A stretch of 64,000 nucleotides of DNA from a virus (IMGVR_UViG_3300032123_000052:103401-167400); one strand, 5' to 3'; positions 21,197 through 62,525 are shown, numbered from the stretch's first letter. Numbers and translations: made by a program. Notes: generated from the letters alone by a model not told the origin.

Positions 21197-22428
21197 GCAA
21201 GGAAACCTCGACCCTTGTGGTCGGGGAGGAATTGCGCCCTCCTATTAAATTAAAGTTTGACTATTTCAATACAAATATAGTATATTGTTTACTGTGAAAA
21301 CAATAAGAACTATTAAACTGAAATTCAATGGGAATCATAAAGCCAATCAAGTGCTTCCATGTTGGCTTAACGCCTGTAATTGGCTTTCTAAAATAGTCTT
21401 TGATTCTAAAGAAATTAACTCTAACAGGCTCTCTCAAGCATATTACAAAACTGTCCGTGAAAAATTTAAACTTACTTCCCAATTGACTTGTACCCTTTTT
21501 AGAACTGTTTCTGCAACATATAAAACTCAAAAAACTAATAAAGAATGGAATCTTTGTATTTATAGAAAGAAATCTATTCCCGTTGTTTGGAAAAGAGACT
21601 TTGCTCGAACCAAAAAAAACATCACTCTCTGGGCTGACCCTATTATGTTTCAAGATTCTCGACTTATTCCTGATAATTGGAAAGATTCTAAAATTTTTCT
21701 TAAAAAGGGACAGTGGTTTTTGAATTTGTCTTATGAAATTGACATCCCTGAACCAAAAGATAAAGGAACTATCGTAGGAGTAGATCAAGGAATCAAAAGA
21801 CTGTTTGTAGCTTCTGATTCTCAAAATAATAAATTGTTTTATAAATCAAACTATCTTAACCATAAACTTTCTAATATCCGAAAAGCAAGAGCTAAAGTAC
21901 AAACGGTTGGAACCCGTTCTTCCAGAAAACTTCTTGAAAGAATGTCTGGCCACGAGGCTTCCGTAACCGAACATGCTGTGCATGTTGCTTCTAAAAGACT
22001 TGTAAAATGGGCTTGTAAAGTAGGGGCGCGAAAGATTGTGGTTGAAGATTTGTCTAACATACGAGAGTCCTCTTTGAAAAAGGGAAAACAGCTTCGTAGT
22101 AAAATCAATCGCTGGCCTTATGCCTTGTTTACTTTTTTTATTACATACAAAGCTGCAACGCTGGGTATTACTGTTGAGCGGGTTTCCCCAAAAAACACTT
22201 CTCGCATGTGTAGCAAGTGTGGTCATATTGATGAATCCAATCGAAATGGTTTTTCTTTTAAATGCAAATCATGCGGTTATACCGCAGATGCTGATTATAA
22301 TGCCAGCAAAAATATTGCTGGACGCTATATGTCTATCGGGTTGAACTCGATAGATACAGGGATTAGTAAACACCCTGAAAACCAAATTATCGGTTAAAGC
22401 CCCGACCCTCGTGGTCGGGGTAGTTTAC
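21197..22428 (+). mobile_element. non-autonomous IS200/IS605-family (IS1341-like) element carrying only tnpB
   Basis: Near-identical subterminal hairpins cctcgacccttgtggtcgggg (left) and ccccgaccctcgtggtcgggg (right). Right end ...ggggtagtttac. TTTAC lies 5' of the left end. Removing the element restores an ORF. Confidence 0.85.
21285..22397 (+). CDS. tnpB: TnpB RNA-guided endonuclease
   Basis: RuvC-I VGVDQG, RuvC-II VVEDL, Zn ribbon CSKC..CKSC and RuvC-III DADYNAS.NI are all intact. Confidence 0.93.
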   Translation: MFTVKTIRTIKLKFNGNHKANQVLPCWLNACNWLSKIVFDSKEINSNRLSQAYYKTVREKFKLTSQLTCTLFRTVSATYKTQKTNKEWNLCIYRKKSIPVVWKRDFARTKKNITLWADPIMFQDSRLIPDNWKDSKIFLKKGQWFLNLSYEIDIPEPKDKGTIVGVDQGIKRLFVASDSQNNKLFYKSNYLNHKLSNIRKARAKVQTVGTRSSRKLLERMSGHEASVTEHAVHVASKRLVKWACKVGARKIVVEDLSNIRESSLKKGKQLRSKINRWPYALFTFFITYKAATLGITVERVSPKNTSRMCSKCGHIDESNRNGFSFKCKSCGYTADADYNASKNIAGRYMSIGLNSIDTGISKHPENQIIG

Positions 22429-47834: not shown

Positions 47835-49421
47835 TTACCCCACTATTGATTGAATAAAATATTCAGGGAAAAAGTGTTTATTCCTAATAAGAAAACTTCT
47901 GAATGCAGAGTCGAGGATGTAAACATTACACCAATCCTCCTTATGGCGGACTCCGCGGCCAGTAACCTGGATTAAAGTTAGTGAGGTTTTCCAGAGATAC
48001 CAGTCTGGATCAATTTCTTTTCTTCGCTTGATCTGCGGATCGCCAAGGAATCCAAATGGCATCTTGCAAATTATGATGAATCTAGCAAGATCATCTTTGA
48101 GATCAACCCCTTCACTTAACGATGGAGATATCATAACCTTTGGATCTTTATGTTTTATAAAATATGAAAGCGCCTCACTGCGATCACCACCATCATGCCC
48201 AACCAACCTTCTTTTATTTGTTATCGCAACACTATCCGTGATGTATCTCGATATTTTAAAACTATGTGTATAAATAAGACCTTTATGAGGCATATGGACA
48301 TCCATAATCTCATTTACTGCCTTTGTTACTTTTGGTAATGTCTCATCAATATTAGTATAACTCATTGATCCGGTATTTACAAATATCGTCTTCCGGTTCT
48401 CAACAGGAAAGGTTGGTGGTACCTGATAGAACTCAGCTTCATCGGGAGGTATCCCAAGGTTGCGACAAAAGTTCTTCTTATCCAGTATAGTGGCAGACAT
48501 CATAAGATGACGCTTGCCAAAACTGAATAAAAGATCATCAGCATACGGTGCAACAGTAACTGGTTTAAAGAATATCTTATCGTCATCAGGGTTATTTTTT
48601 CCGCGCTGAATTTCGTGAACCCATTCGTTCTGCTCACAAGTCTTAAGGAAATTATCAATCTTCTTGATCTGTGTATTCAGTCTGGTATTCATCGATGATA
48701 GTTTTTTTATCTGCTCGATTATATTGTCACGACCAGCGACAGAAACTAATAGGTCTGATTTTAAACTCAGTATGTCAGATAAGTTACTTTTAACCTCATC
48801 AGCAAAACAATCTGAAATCTGATTAAGCCAGTCAATATAATCTTCAACCTTATCGTATTCTGGTATATCAGAAAGTGACCCTAGTTTTCTCATATATTTC
48901 GATGTAAACTTGATTTCAACAAAACCCATTAACTCTCTATCCACCCCATGACATTCATCACAAACGATTAGGTTTGCAGGTTTAAATATTTTTGCATATT
49001 GAGTTGCATAAAGAAAATATGTATAATTTAACAATGCTATTTTAGCATTAAGCGCAGCACCCTTTGCCGATTCATATGGACATTCGGTGATATCTGGACA
49101 CCTTCCTGTTTGACAAAATCCATTGTTACAAAAGCTATCCATATGAGCGCAGCTGTAATTGTTACGGCCCATCAACTCAACAAATTCCGGCGATCCGTAA
49201 TCATATACGTACTGGGTCTGCAGGACTTTCTGAGATGTTAATAGGTATGTTGGCGCAAAGTGCATACCAAGGGCAACAGCGATCGGGGATTTTCCCGACC
49301 CTGTTGGTGCCTCTAATATTACATATTTAATCCCACTGTCAAAAGCTTTTTCTATCGTAAGAATGGTCTCGCGTTGATACCGGCGGTAGGTGCCATGCGG
49401 AAAGTGAGTTAGTATATCCAA
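47835..49421 (-). CDS. DinG/XPD-like SF2 helicase
   Basis: Q motif RRYQ, Walker A APTGSGKS, Cys cluster, DECH, SAT, EGVD, Q..GRGVR. Confidence 0.88.
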   Translation of the reverse strand: MDILTHFPHGTYRRYQRETILTIEKAFDSGIKYVILEAPTGSGKSPIAVALGMHFAPTYLLTSQKVLQTQYVYDYGSPEFVELMGRNNYSCAHMDSFCNNGFCQTGRCPDITECPYESAKGAALNAKIALLNYTYFLYATQYAKIFKPANLIVCDECHGVDRELMGFVEIKFTSKYMRKLGSLSDIPEYDKVEDYIDWLNQISDCFADEVKSNLSDILSLKSDLLVSVAGRDNIIEQIKKLSSMNTRLNTQIKKIDNFLKTCEQNEWVHEIQRGKNNPDDDKIFFKPVTVAPYADDLLFSFGKRHLMMSATILDKKNFCRNLGIPPDEAEFYQVPPTFPVENRKTIFVNTGSMSYTNIDETLPKVTKAVNEIMDVHMPHKGLIYTHSFKISRYITDSVAITNKRRLVGHDGGDRSEALSYFIKHKDPKVMISPSLSEGVDLKDDLARFIIICKMPFGFLGDPQIKRRKEIDPDWYLWKTSLTLIQVTGRGVRHKEDWCNVYILDSAFRSFLIRNKHFFPEYFIQSIVG

Positions 49422-56627: not shown

Positions 56628-57470
56628 TTATTTGCAGACGATTTCGAAGAACATCGCATCAATGTGTTTATAATCATCATCAGTTAATTCTTTAACGTCT
56701 AATGCATCTGCGTAATTTCCATACACATCAAATTGTTTTTCGCAAAACGTGTCAAGAGTTTTAATTCGTGGGCCGCGGCCAAGCTCATCACCACTCTTTT
56801 TCTGTGAAATTAGATCCTTAACGATATTCTCTATATCGGTAAATTCATCAGATTGAACCGTTCCAATATATTTGATTATCTTATCAAATTTCATTGGGGG
56901 GATGTCGCCACCATGCCTCATCATCCATTCACACGCATAAATAGGCCTGAGTACGTACAGGTATTTTTTAACTATTACATCACCTTCGACGTTTTTAATG
57001 TACTGAGTAAAATTCTTCCTGGCCATATACTCGTAATGATGAATACCAGATTTGGTTTTAAAAAACTTTTCAGCCAATTGTTGTATAGTATAAACGATGA
57101 ATGGTTTTTTTATATATACTATAGGAGAATGTAGCCACTCAGCTACTGCTGGGTTTCCTTTTGATATTAACCTGAGTGCTTTGCTGATATCAAAACCAAC
57201 AAAATCTAACTCCTCATCCTCGAGAGATCGTATGTACTTACTTGTACCAATGTTACCTTTGTTACGGTCGATAACGTCACGCACTGGATTTATTGAGAAG
57301 TACTTGCTAATCGGCCGGGTGTAAACAAACCGGATATCATAGTCACTATCATCAGATTCAAAACCCCAAGCCCTGCTACCTGACTCACAAGCGTAGATGA
57401 TTTTTATATTCTCCATTATTTCGATATTTTTCAATATCTCGATAATTCTATTTATTTTTGTAAATTCCAC
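56628..57470 (-). CDS. Pol-beta-superfamily nucleotidyltransferase (YcgL/RlaP-like)
   Basis: ACESGSRAWGFES.DSDYD.RFVY, K.NP...EWL.SPIVY, KKYLYVLRP. Confidence 0.85.
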   Translation of the reverse strand: MEFTKINRIIEILKNIEIMENIKIIYACESGSRAWGFESDDSDYDIRFVYTRPISKYFSINPVRDVIDRNKGNIGTSKYIRSLEDEELDFVGFDISKALRLISKGNPAVAEWLHSPIVYIKKPFIVYTIQQLAEKFFKTKSGIHHYEYMARKNFTQYIKNVEGDVIVKKYLYVLRPIYACEWMMRHGGDIPPMKFDKIIKYIGTVQSDEFTDIENIVKDLISQKKSGDELGRGPRIKTLDTFCEKQFDVYGNYADALDVKELTDDDYKHIDAMFFEIVCK

Positions 57471-59925: not shown

Positions 59926-60165
59926 TCAAGACTGATAGCATTTCCGTTTCTTGACACAACCAACCTCCTTTTTTAATTGTTTAAATGATACTTTTCCAGT
60001 ACGAAATACACGTCGTAATTTTGCATCTTCTCCAAATCTTGGAAAATACCTTCTCCTTGACCCGTGTTCGTTCCTTCTACACCGCTCATTGTGATACTCT
60101 TGCTTCGGTGTTTCAGGAACGAACAATATTCCGCAATGTGGACAGATTTTACTTTGTAAAGGCAT
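59926..60165 (-). CDS. small Zn-finger protein
   Basis: CPHCG..F....Q.YH...C; AGGAG RBS; directly downstream of the CRISPR locus. Confidence 0.6.
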   Translation of the reverse strand: MPLQSKICPHCGILFVPETPKQEYHNERCRRNEHGSRRRYFPRFGEDAKLRRVFRTGKVSFKQLKKEVGCVKKRKCYQS

Positions 60166-60183
60166 TTTTATCTCCTATAAATT

Positions 60184-60265
60184 AAAAATGCGCGTGAGGG
60201 TGCTCCGTCGGAGCATTATGTCGCATCGTGGCGACACATACGTTAAATGGTAAACGCTAAACAAC
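60184..60265 (-). ncRNA. tracrRNA-like RNA, copy B (trailer side)
   Basis: Paralogue of 61103-61184 with compensatory changes; anti-repeat CCCTCACGCGC, loop CCATTT and a U-tract. Confidence 0.7.
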
Positions 60266-60311
60266 ATTTGGAACTATTTTTAATTTATTTAGGAAAAAAA
60301 ATAAGCCTTTT

Positions 60312-60999
60312 GCGTGCGCGGAAGAAACAATCGTTCTAAAATAATAAACGGATTATACCACCCATTTCCCTCGCGTGCGCGAAAGAAACGAGATAAAAAA
60401 CAGCCTGGTGATGTTTGCCTCCCCATTTCCCTCGCGCGCGAGAAAGAAACTGATACCGTAGTGCTATAAGGCATAACGCCTCCCCATTTCCCTCGCGCGC
60501 GCGGAAGAAACCCATGGCCAGTGAGAGTTTGACATTTTTCCTTCCCATTTCCCTCGCGCGCGCGGAAGAAACTAGAGAGAGAATTGTTAGATAACTGATA
60601 AGAACCCATTTCCCTCGCGCGCGCGGAAGAAACAGATCGTCAATGGCAATAGGGTTACCTTCACCCCCATTTCCCTCGCGCGCGCGGAAGAAACCGTCAC
60701 CAAATATTTTGCATAGTCTTTCGAAACCCATTTCCCTCGCGCGCGCGGAAGAAACGCCAGCAGGTGCCCACGACCTTGGATCCCCAGCCCATTTCCCTCG
60801 CGCGCGCGGAAGAAACTTTTCAATTTTCTCCTTATTCATTGTCAACCCCCCATTTCCCTCGCGCGCGCGGAAGAAACCGAAAAAATTAGGAGCCTCGCTG
60901 ACCTCCTCACCCATTTCCCTCGCGCGCGCGGAAGAAACAGTGGAAGCGAATTTGCGGGCAATTGGTGCTGCCCATTTCCCTCGCGCGTGCGGAAGAAAC
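60312..60999 (-). CRISPR. CRISPR array: 11 full 29-nt repeats, 1 truncated repeat, 11 spacers of 32 nt
   Basis: Repeat GTTTCTTCCGCGCGCGCGAGGGAAATGGG (- strand). + strand starts run from 60361 to 60971 with an exact 61-bp period. Repeats degenerate at the low-coordinate (trailer) end. Confidence 0.97.
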
Positions 61000-61102
61000 T
61001 GCTGGCAATTGGCCCGTCGTCACTAAACAAACAAAATACGATCTGCATTCTTAACTATAGAATTTGTATATAAAGCCTGAAATTGCATAAATTATTATTT
61101 TT
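61000..61102 (-). promoter_or_regulatory. probable CRISPR leader
   Basis: About 100 bp, mostly AT-rich, next to the non-truncated end of the array. Confidence 0.5.
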
Positions 61103-61184
61103 AAAAAAGGCGCACGAGGGGGAACCGTCGGTTCCTTATGCTGCATCGTGGCAGCACATACGTTAAATGGTAAACGCTAACAAC
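61103..61184 (-). ncRNA. tracrRNA-like RNA, copy A (between effector and leader)
   Basis: Three hairpins. The 3' CCCTCGTGCGC is complementary to repeat GCGCGCGAGGG. Loop CCATTT is complementary to repeat AAATGG. Ends in a U6 tract. Confidence 0.75.
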
Positions 61185-61196
61185 TTGTTTAATAAT

Positions 61197-62525
61197 TTAT
61201 ACAACTTCAGTTTCAATCTGGACAGCAACTTTCTTATCGTCCGGTGTGGCAAAGACAGCGTCGCCTGACGTTTCTTTTTCTGGAGCTTTGGCAAGAATGG
61301 TTGTTAATTGTCCTTTTAGCTCATCTTCAACCTTATATCTCAATATGGATTCAAACTGAGATAGCTGCCATTCCATACCGCATAATAATTTTGAAGGTAG
61401 ATTGAGAATAATTATATGGCCACAGCCCCATGACTGCGCGTTGGAAATAATTCTTCTGGTCCAAAGATGGTTCTTCTCCTTTTTGCCGTTAAGCTTTCTA
61501 TTAGTAATATTTTCACTACGACCATTAATTACCTTTAGAATTTTACGGGAACCCCAATTATTAAATTTACTTCCGACAGATGCTCTTTGGTCTTTGAATT
61601 TGCTGGTAAGAATAGCCAACTCCTTGTTCCAAGCACGAGCCTCAGTAACATCTATCTTATCTGAATAATGAAACTTCTCATCACAATACATCGTAATGGC
61701 ACACTCAGGATCATCAGTAAATTCAACATACATAACCCTGTTTTTAAAGTCTTCAACAACCTTTTCCGGCATTTTGTAAGTTACTGTAAGGGTTAAATAT
61801 CTGTGCTTCTGGCCATCAGACCCATTCTTATAATTAGACCCAAGATACATTGTACCAGGTCTCCACACGTCGTCACGGAGATTTTTAAACTTCCAGAACA
61901 TGTTGTTTGGAAGACTACTCTTAACATGAAACTCTACAGGGCCAATTGAATGGTCCCATTTAACAATAATACTTTTTTCCATAAATTTCGGCTTTGCCGT
62001 CAATCGCGGCATGCCAATGCCTATTTTTCGAAACCTGGCAAAAGCACGAGATCCTTGAAGGGTAAGCCAACCGCGCGTGATTGTTTTTTTTTTAGTTGAA
62101 AATTCCGGATCTGGGTGTTTCCATGTTCCAACCACCTCATCCTTACATGAGGTCCACACGTATGACAGGACTGTAGGCATTTCCTCTTTATTTGCAAAAT
62201 CCCGAAGTTCATAAGCGTCGGCCTTATATCCAACTACACCATATGCGAGTTCAAGGATTTTTTTTGCAGATCCTTTAAATCCTTTTTTTGGTGTTAAAGT
62301 TAAATTGCCTTTTTTTGTTGTTATGGTCGCGCCTGTTGCCATTGCCATTGCTATAGCAGAAAACATTTTTCGTGCTGTAGCACGGTATAAATCTATTGAT
62401 GCAAAAATTCTACGTACCAACCCTGTTTTATCAGGATCATCAACAAAAACTTCAAACACTTGTGCCCTTGTGACTTTGTAATAGTCATCTTCATATCTTT
62501 TCTTTTGGCCTTCTTTCTTATTCAT
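61197..62525 (-). CDS. compact type V (Cas12f/TnpB-like) CRISPR effector, predicted nuclease-dead
   Basis: 442 aa next to the array. Cas12f-like segments: QGSRAFARFRK, LTVTYKMP..NRVMYVEF, NHLWTRRIISNAQSWGCGHIIILNL, WQLSQFESILRYKVE. No catalytic D/E, no Zn ribbon and no RuvC-III. Confidence 0.72.
   Translation of the reverse strand: MNKKEGQKKRYEDDYYKVTRAQVFEVFVDDPDKTGLVRRIFASIDLYRATARKMFSAIAMAMATGATITTKKGNLTLTPKKGFKGSAKKILELAYGVVGYKADAYELRDFANKEEMPTVLSYVWTSCKDEVVGTWKHPDPEFSTKKKTITRGWLTLQGSRAFARFRKIGIGMPRLTAKPKFMEKSIIVKWDHSIGPVEFHVKSSLPNNMFWKFKNLRDDVWRPGTMYLGSNYKNGSDGQKHRYLTLTVTYKMPEKVVEDFKNRVMYVEFTDDPECAITMYCDEKFHYSDKIDVTEARAWNKELAILTSKFKDQRASVGSKFNNWGSRKILKVINGRSENITNRKLNGKKEKNHLWTRRIISNAQSWGCGHIIILNLPSKLLCGMEWQLSQFESILRYKVEDELKGQLTTILAKAPEKETSGDAVFATPDDKKVAVQIETEVV

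Follow-up and report, generated by a model that had tools for sequence, protein, structure and literature searches.

We find that a phage genome of 208,085 bp carries a CRISPR array of eleven spacers beside a gene for a Cas12f-like protein that lacks a complete RuvC site. We predict that this pair probably binds DNA without cutting it and silences genes in a CRISPRi-like fashion. The original prediction for this DNA, that the guides serve repression rather than cutting, fits with such an effector. Its narrower proposal, that the guides aim at the starts of genes, is unproven.

The CRISPR array and its genomic setting

The window analyzed here is a stretch of 64,000 nucleotides that covers bases 103401-167400 of the virus record (IMGVR_UViG_3300032123_000052), which is rated complete by CheckV; positions refer to the window unless the genome is named. 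The array occupies 60300..60999 on the minus strand and is built of 12 units of a 29-nt repeat and eleven spacers, all of them exactly 32 nt long. Eight of the 12 repeat units are exact, one has one mismatch and two have two mismatches. The terminal unit (60300-60328) is degenerate, and the degenerate units lie at the low-coordinate, or trailer, end. At the high-coordinate end is an A+T-rich leader (61000..61097, minus strand), placed between the first copy of a structured element and the first repeat, in which no consensus sigma-70 promoter was called. Because the leader is A+T-rich, the degeneracy is at the trailer end and the neighboring genes are all on the minus strand, the array is likely transcribed from the minus strand, which is the sense in which the original prediction read it. 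The six strings that it quoted from the spacers are all present on that strand, at the coordinates given below with each spacer.

The gene order, on one strand throughout, is effector, 85-nt structured element, leader, array and second copy of the element. The combination of a 29-nt repeat with a 32-nt spacer is that of the E. coli I-E arrays used as controls below, and such a geometry is typical of class 1 arrays. The exact repeat had no match in IMG/VR and none in the contigs of 185,579 species genomes, and a search of metagenomes with a two-repeat pattern returned three loci, none of which is a related array. In a sequencing-run search, the runs holding the locus were marine-sediment metagenomes only, all from one sample. 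The array is unchanged in the contigs of this source sample, and no variant spacers occur among the contigs listed.

One local irregularity was seen in the same contigs. Over 60853-60926, which covers spacer 2 and its repeats, the summed word depth is 28-34, compared to 55-64 in the flanks. This dip may be a filter effect or may reflect heterogeneity at the leader end, and the contigs listed hold no variant there.

The adjoining gene encodes a Cas12f-like protein without a complete RuvC site

A 442-aa protein, which we call P0001, is encoded at 61197..62525 on the minus strand and probably serves the array as its effector. The gene ends with a stop codon at 61197, and the array's first repeat follows on that strand at 60999. 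P0001 matches the PADLOC models for Cas12u3 (4.5e-6) and Cas12f (4.5e-5). Its relatives are few: only three were found among 5.8 billion protein clusters, at 79%, 67% and 28% identity, with none in IMG/VR and none in GenBank phages by tblastn. Against solved structures, a profile made from P0001 and these three relatives gives matches that range from 4.2e-7 for SpCas12f1 (9i8y) to 2e-3 for a natural dCas12f (9n9c), with OsCas12f (9nzq) and AsCas12f also matched, and it scores nearer to solved Cas12f proteins than to TnpB. The AlphaFold model of P0001 is of low confidence (pLDDT 46), and the top ten Foldseek matches of this poor model, all Cas12f or dCas12f, have a TM of only about 0.2. The ESM Atlas's own model of P0001 aligns at a TM of 0.62-0.66 over 331-356 residues to TnpB/Cas12f clusters, several of which are mostly viral. 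We are highly confident that P0001 is Cas12f-like.

The Asp-Glu-Asp RuvC triad of active type V-F Cas12f enzymes is not found in P0001. In the profile alignment, the first Asp (VDLG) is replaced by Glu (VEF) in all four family members, and the second-position Glu (IENL) is replaced by Leu, Thr, Asn or Gly, so that the motif reads I(L/T/N/G)NL across the four. P0001 then stops about 31 residues past RuvC-II and the aligned part, whereas SpCas12f1 runs about 130 residues further. These extra residues carry the zinc ribbon and the third RuvC Asp, and P0001 has neither. Consistently, the TNB domain model (PF07282) has no match on P0001. Its sole match in the six-frame translation of the genome, at window 22122-22316 (genome 125522-125716), is in a separate IS-type TnpB gene (window 21285-22397), which carries the genome's only TNB domain. 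TnpB/Cas12f models are matched by only two genes in the genome.

From these substitutions and the truncation, we hold with good confidence that P0001 cannot cut DNA, although the Glu that stands in for the first RuvC Asp may retain metal binding. Since P0001 lies next to the array and lacks a complete RuvC site, binding without cutting is its likely mode of action, and it would thus silence its targets rather than cleave them.

On the far side of the array is a 79-aa ORF (59926-60165, minus strand) that begins 18 nt past the second element copy, has its own AGGAG site and carries a zinc-ribbon-like N-terminus of the form CxxC...HxxxC. No family matched it, and it may assist the module or have nothing to do with it. 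The idea that the small zinc-ribbon ORF after the array supplies the missing Cas12f C-terminus was rejected.

A duplicated structured element resembles a tracrRNA

An 85-nt element lies between the effector gene and the leader (61098..61182, minus strand). It has three stems and a 3' tail, CCCTCGTGCGC, that is complementary to repeat positions 12-22 over 11 bp, one of them a G-U pair. A second copy (60178..60262, minus strand) stands directly after the array, and its tail, CCCTCACGCGC, has one mismatch to the repeat. A covariance model found only these two copies in the 231 kb searched, with the next match at an E of 3.1, and on this basis the idea that the element belongs to a dispersed hairpin family was rejected. 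The three stems comprise 19 predicted pairs, of which five show compensatory changes between the copies and none is broken. No Rfam family was found for the element.

Complementarity of this kind is rare in the genome. Matches of 11 bp to the repeat with at most one G-U pair occur at four loci in 414,730 genome positions, all outside the array, and the chance of finding one within the effector-array interval of about 200 nt is therefore about 0.002. Cofolding of the element with the repeat gives a gain of -18.7 kcal/mol, compared to -8.3 +/- 2.8 kcal/mol for 200 shuffled repeats (z about -3.7), and just one of the 200 shuffled repeats reached the gain of the real one. In addition, by direct reading, the six repeat bases that come next (AAATGG) could pair with loop 1 of the element (CCATTT). 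Given the 11-bp anti-repeat in an element that flanks the array, we consider it a likely candidate tracrRNA.

Among the four loci with an 11-bp repeat complement is a 12-nt stretch outside the window (genome 62804-62815, plus strand) that is complementary to repeat positions 16-27 and sits at the junction of two minus-strand ORFs. This complement may be due to chance or may be a second anti-repeat.

Class 1 and adaptation genes were not found in the phage

The original prediction had placed the array in a type I-E frame with an AAG PAM. This frame is not supported: the searches of the phage for genes of Cascade, Csf, Cas1, Cas2 and Cas3 came up empty. The Pfam scan covered 71 of the 89 window ORFs and 141 of the 143 outside-window ORFs of at least 70 aa (212 in all), leaving out two large ORFs and ORFs under 50-70 aa, and the PADLOC scan covered 75 proteins. 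A six-frame search of the whole genome for Cas1 (PF01867) and Cas2 (PF09827) gave no matches, while the positive controls for these two models matched in 7 and 6 of 14 control genomes.

A helicase of the DinG/XPD family is encoded at 47835-49421 on the minus strand, 11 kb from the array, and can mislead a type IV call because PADLOC reports it as typeIV_DinG (2.5e-71). The NCBIfam models place it with YoaA (2e-22) and DinG (2e-18), far above Csf4 (0.011), although all three scores are under the cut-offs of their models. The NCBIfam Csf models had no match on eight neighbors of the helicase. It is probably a replication or repair helicase.

Some spacers resemble gene starts, over a broader bias at the repeat junction

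We scored the spacers with a start-site matrix derived from 116 SD-ATG starts of genes in the phage itself. In the crRNA sense, spacer 3 (60817..60848, minus strand) has the top score, 10.9. It reads GGGTTGACA-ATG-AATAAG..., with a TTGACA and with the ATG at position 10 in a frame that is open to the end. Spacer 9 (60451..60482, minus strand; score 9.5) reads GAGGCGTT-ATG-CCTTAT... and holds a well-formed start site, in which GAGG is followed after 4 nt by the ATG. Spacer 8 (60512..60543, minus strand; score 8.2) reads AAGGAAAA-ATG-TCAAAC..., with AAGGA and an ATG at position 9, at an aligned SD-to-ATG spacing of only 1 nt. An SD sequence precedes 46-65% of 223 phage ORFs, compared to 6% of random positions, and the SD-to-ATG spacing of phage genes peaks at 4-6 nt and is 1 nt or less in only 8%. 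The spacing in spacer 9 thus fits the phage's own genes, whereas that in spacer 8 is atypical.

Three of the eleven spacers score above the 95th percentile of random 32-mers (6.3-6.4; P of about 0.015), compared to one of eleven in the antisense direction. When all eleven spacers are ranked against background, no significant shift is seen (P 0.10-0.16). The resemblance to a translation start stands for three of the eleven spacers, and the look of a gene 5' region for three to four; the estimate of about half was too high.

A related claim was that spacers begin with sequences like a ribosome-binding site. GGAG, GAGG or AGGA occurs in the first 8 nt of 4/11 spacers in the crRNA sense and 0/11 in the antisense. 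The rate expected is 3.3% from the phage genome and 4.3% from 200 kb of assorted bacterial loci, which gives a nominal P of 3e-4 to 9e-4. Ordinary I-E spacers had been proposed as the proper comparison, and the excess holds against them: among 56 unique spacers from the arrays of seven E. coli strains, the SD-like 4-mer is found in 3/56 in the sense and 1/56 in the antisense direction (Fisher P 0.011 for 4/11 against 3/56 in the sense direction). An important caveat is that the spacer features were picked after the data had been seen, so that these P values are optimistic. Moreover, two of the four spacers with SD-like starts have no ATG, GTG or TTG 3-9 nt downstream, namely spacer 2 (60878..60909, minus strand), which starts TGAGGAGG and scores -1.9, and spacer 10 (60390..60421, minus strand), which starts GAGG and scores -0.1.

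The suggestion that an AAG PAM would by itself enrich for such starts did not hold up. The best 3-nt PAM gives SD-like starts at 4.4% in the phage genome and 5.9% in the bacterial loci, AAG gives 3.6-4.5%, and real I-E spacers are at 5%.

Spacer 11 (60329..60360, minus strand) had been described as starting with a perfect extended -10 element. It does start TGGTATAAT, which agrees with the extended -10 consensus and has a background of 0.06-0.2% per 32-mer, but this is a single instance. The two promoter-like motifs, TGnTATAAT in spacer 11 and TTGACA in spacer 3, occur once each.

The strongest and broader signal in the spacers is a richness in G at positions 1-4, locked to the repeat junction. 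G fills 21 of the 44 cells at these positions, compared to 19% in the background and 18% at positions 9-32 (P 2e-5), and GG occurs in the first six nucleotides of 8/11 spacers, compared to 19/56 E. coli spacers (P 0.02). A bias locked in this way may mark a sequence preference in acquisition or in stable binding rather than a gene start.

Searches for targets

The phage's own genome holds no match to the spacers with up to eight substitutions, and the longest exact words shared are 10-13 nt. Partial spacer seeds occur there in about chance numbers and without convincing gene-start sites, and none of the phage's genes has an N-terminus resembling the spacers. By blastn of the whole array, the best match in 50,697 phage records has an E of 0.7, as does that in 72,556 plasmids. 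Exact 20-22-nt 5' seeds of five of the eleven spacers (1, 2, 3, 8 and 9) each gave no match in IMG/VR. The array was also compared with samples of 401, 401, 401, 401 and 381 species genomes from five phyla, with two candidates scored per genome; no protospacer was found in these samples, which held no Pseudomonadota or Fibrobacterota genomes. Two matches of 23/24 to spacer 3 were rejected as expected by chance and lying inside a longer ORF, and two that span a spacer-repeat junction were rejected as not being protospacers.

A model for the array and its effector

In the mechanism that we propose, the structured element would serve as a tracrRNA that pairs with the repeat, the crRNA would carry the spacer at its 3' end, and the resulting complex would sit on DNA and block RNA polymerase. 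Because the phage has no Cas1-Cas2, the uniform 32-nt spacers would have been added by a Cas1-Cas2 integrase that was supplied in trans or was present in an ancestor.

The orientation of the guides would suit such a roadblock. The gene-start-like features lie in the crRNA sense, so that the template strand would be the one bound by the crRNA. Inside transcribed regions, repression by dCas12a likewise works through template-strand targeting (PMC12873800). The sense orientation is the one in which a type V roadblock can stop transcription. The translation-start-like spacers 3, 8 and 9 and the -10 box-like spacer 11, all in the sense orientation, fit selection for the 5' ends of targets.

How far the spacers can be read in this way is less certain. 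We tentatively propose, as a possible if somewhat doubtful reading, that the guides have been selected for the ribosome-binding, start-codon and promoter stretches of host or rival-phage genes, which would amount to multiplexed CRISPRi in the polymerase-stopping orientation. However, the start-like spacers are a minority of the array, atop a general G- and purine-rich bias at positions 1-4, and it is possible, if somewhat doubtful, that the purine- and G-rich starts reflect a sequence preference only, with the gene-start look a by-product or chance and the targets being ordinary sites in rival phages or plasmids. Such a preference could come from the integrase, from an extended TAM-proximal motif, or from the stability of an RNA-purine:DNA-pyrimidine seed in a pure binder. 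The position-locked enrichment of G speaks for it, with GG within the first six nucleotides of 8/11 spacers and G at 21/44 of positions 1-4 against 18% at 9-32, as do the lack of a start codon in two of the four SD-like starts, the non-significant global rank test and the choice of features after the data were seen. On the other side, no 3-nt PAM raises SD-like starts above 6%, and real I-E spacers reach only 5%. Composition bias alone also predicts neither the ATG at positions 9-10 in three spacers nor the strict sense polarity (4:0 and 3:1).

Two further accounts deny P0001 its role or the array its function. We consider it improbable that the array works with a class 1 system belonging to the host, a type I-E or IV-A Cascade, the Cas12f-like gene being unrelated. 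Such an arrangement would account for the E. coli I-E geometry of 29-nt repeat and 32-nt spacer and for the typeIV_DinG match of the helicase (2.5e-71), and phages that borrow host Cas proteins have been described (PMC7162821). However, csf1-3/5 and Cascade genes were not found among the phage ORFs scanned, the NCBIfam score of the helicase is far better for YoaA/DinG (2e-22) than for Csf4 (0.011), and no copy of the exact repeat turned up in IMG/VR or in 185,579 species genomes. The effector also adjoins the anti-repeat element and the array without interruption on one strand, in a genome with only two TnpB/Cas12f-matching genes and four 11-bp repeat complements outside the array. Likewise improbable, in our judgment, is that the array is an inactive relic carried by the phage, its spacer features having no present function. 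The phage's lack of adaptation genes, the three degenerate repeats at the trailer end and the absence of spacer variants among the listed contigs of the one sample that holds the array would agree with a relic, but eight repeats are identical, the effector gene has kept an open frame whose product is 67-79% identical to two relatives, and the two copies of the element keep their stems through five compensatory changes.

Relation to known systems

A non-cutting module of array and Cas12f-like protein, the reading that we prefer, has precedents, and CRISPR-linked dead Cas12f proteins are already published (PMC13472631; PMC7162821). In the CRISPR-linked dCas12f cluster of Hoffmann et al. (PMC13472631), C-terminal truncations remove part of the RuvC site, and the predicted guides sometimes match promoter regions, which suggests repression. 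P0001 resembles these proteins in having a C-terminally truncated RuvC domain, a place beside an array, a predicted structured RNA upstream of that array and a predicted role as a repressor. The present case differs in its 208-kb phage, its I-E-like 29/32 array with 11 spacers and its two flanking copies of the RNA. The 'dCas14' of huge phages (Al-Shayeb et al., 2020, PMC7162821) is a miniature type V protein without a catalytic residue that was read as a repressor, and phage spacers matching host intergenic regions were reported in the same work. In the dCas14 case the host target was glycyl-tRNA synthetase, whereas for our array no protospacer was found in the searches above.

Among active enzymes, the type V-F Cas12f1 proteins (SpCas12f1 9i8y, AsCas12f 8j12, OsCas12f 9nzq) are the best sequence and fold matches. 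They share with the present locus a layout in which the tracrRNA, a candidate one here, sits between effector and array and the crRNA carries its guide, here as predicted, at the 3' end. In contrast to these nucleases, P0001 has neither the complete D-E-D triad nor the zinc-ribbon TNB domain.

Two other kinds of non-cutting proteins are comparable. TldR (bioRxiv 10.1101/2023.11.30.569447) is likewise a small, phage-encoded, nuclease-dead RuvC protein of the TnpB/Cas12 lineage that acts as an RNA-guided repressor, but it uses one omega-RNA-type guide and no CRISPR array, as opposed to the eleven-spacer array here. The compact type V-M effector Cas12m (PMC10442227) protects by DNA binding and silencing, not by cutting of dsDNA, and is in this respect like P0001 as predicted here. 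Cas12m is, however, a protein of about 600 aa and thus bigger, it retains a RuvC triad in altered form, and it is a weak fold match to P0001 (Foldseek E of 8e-3 to 3e-2, with the poor P0001 model).

What is distinctive here is that the module belongs to a jumbo phage, that its eleven guides sit in an array of class 1-like 29/32 geometry and that the candidate helper element is duplicated. The module adds one phage instance to a published kind, and its gene-start reading is a testable lead, not a result. Should the guides prove to lie over gene starts, we would have a naturally occurring case in which a virus achieves programmable repression with many guides and an effector that does not cut, and the placement of guides on the sense strand and over the start would offer rules for the design of miniature CRISPRi tools. 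The module takes little space, with a 442-aa protein, an 85-nt candidate helper RNA and 29-nt repeats. That a type V effector goes with an array of class 1-like geometry also bears on the filling of arrays in trans.

Other loci in the phage

Several other genes are of note. A 500-aa protein encoded outside the window (genome 179031-180530; L015:14031-15530, minus strand) matches RRXRR (1.8e-68) together with HNH, a pair of domains that typically marks RNA-guided nucleases of the IscB kind. Besides the IS TnpB and the dead Cas12f, this would give the genome a third gene of RNA-guided-nuclease type. Also outside the window, a reverse transcriptase gene (genome 88957-90633; L013:16957-18633, minus strand) adjoins an RNase H gene, and its best PADLOC matches are RT_XIII, RT_III-A and the retron type. 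Within the window, 3 kb downstream of the array, a gene at 56628-57470 on the minus strand encodes an RlaP-family protein (4e-69), a family of the RNA repair pathway and of the DNA polymerase beta family.
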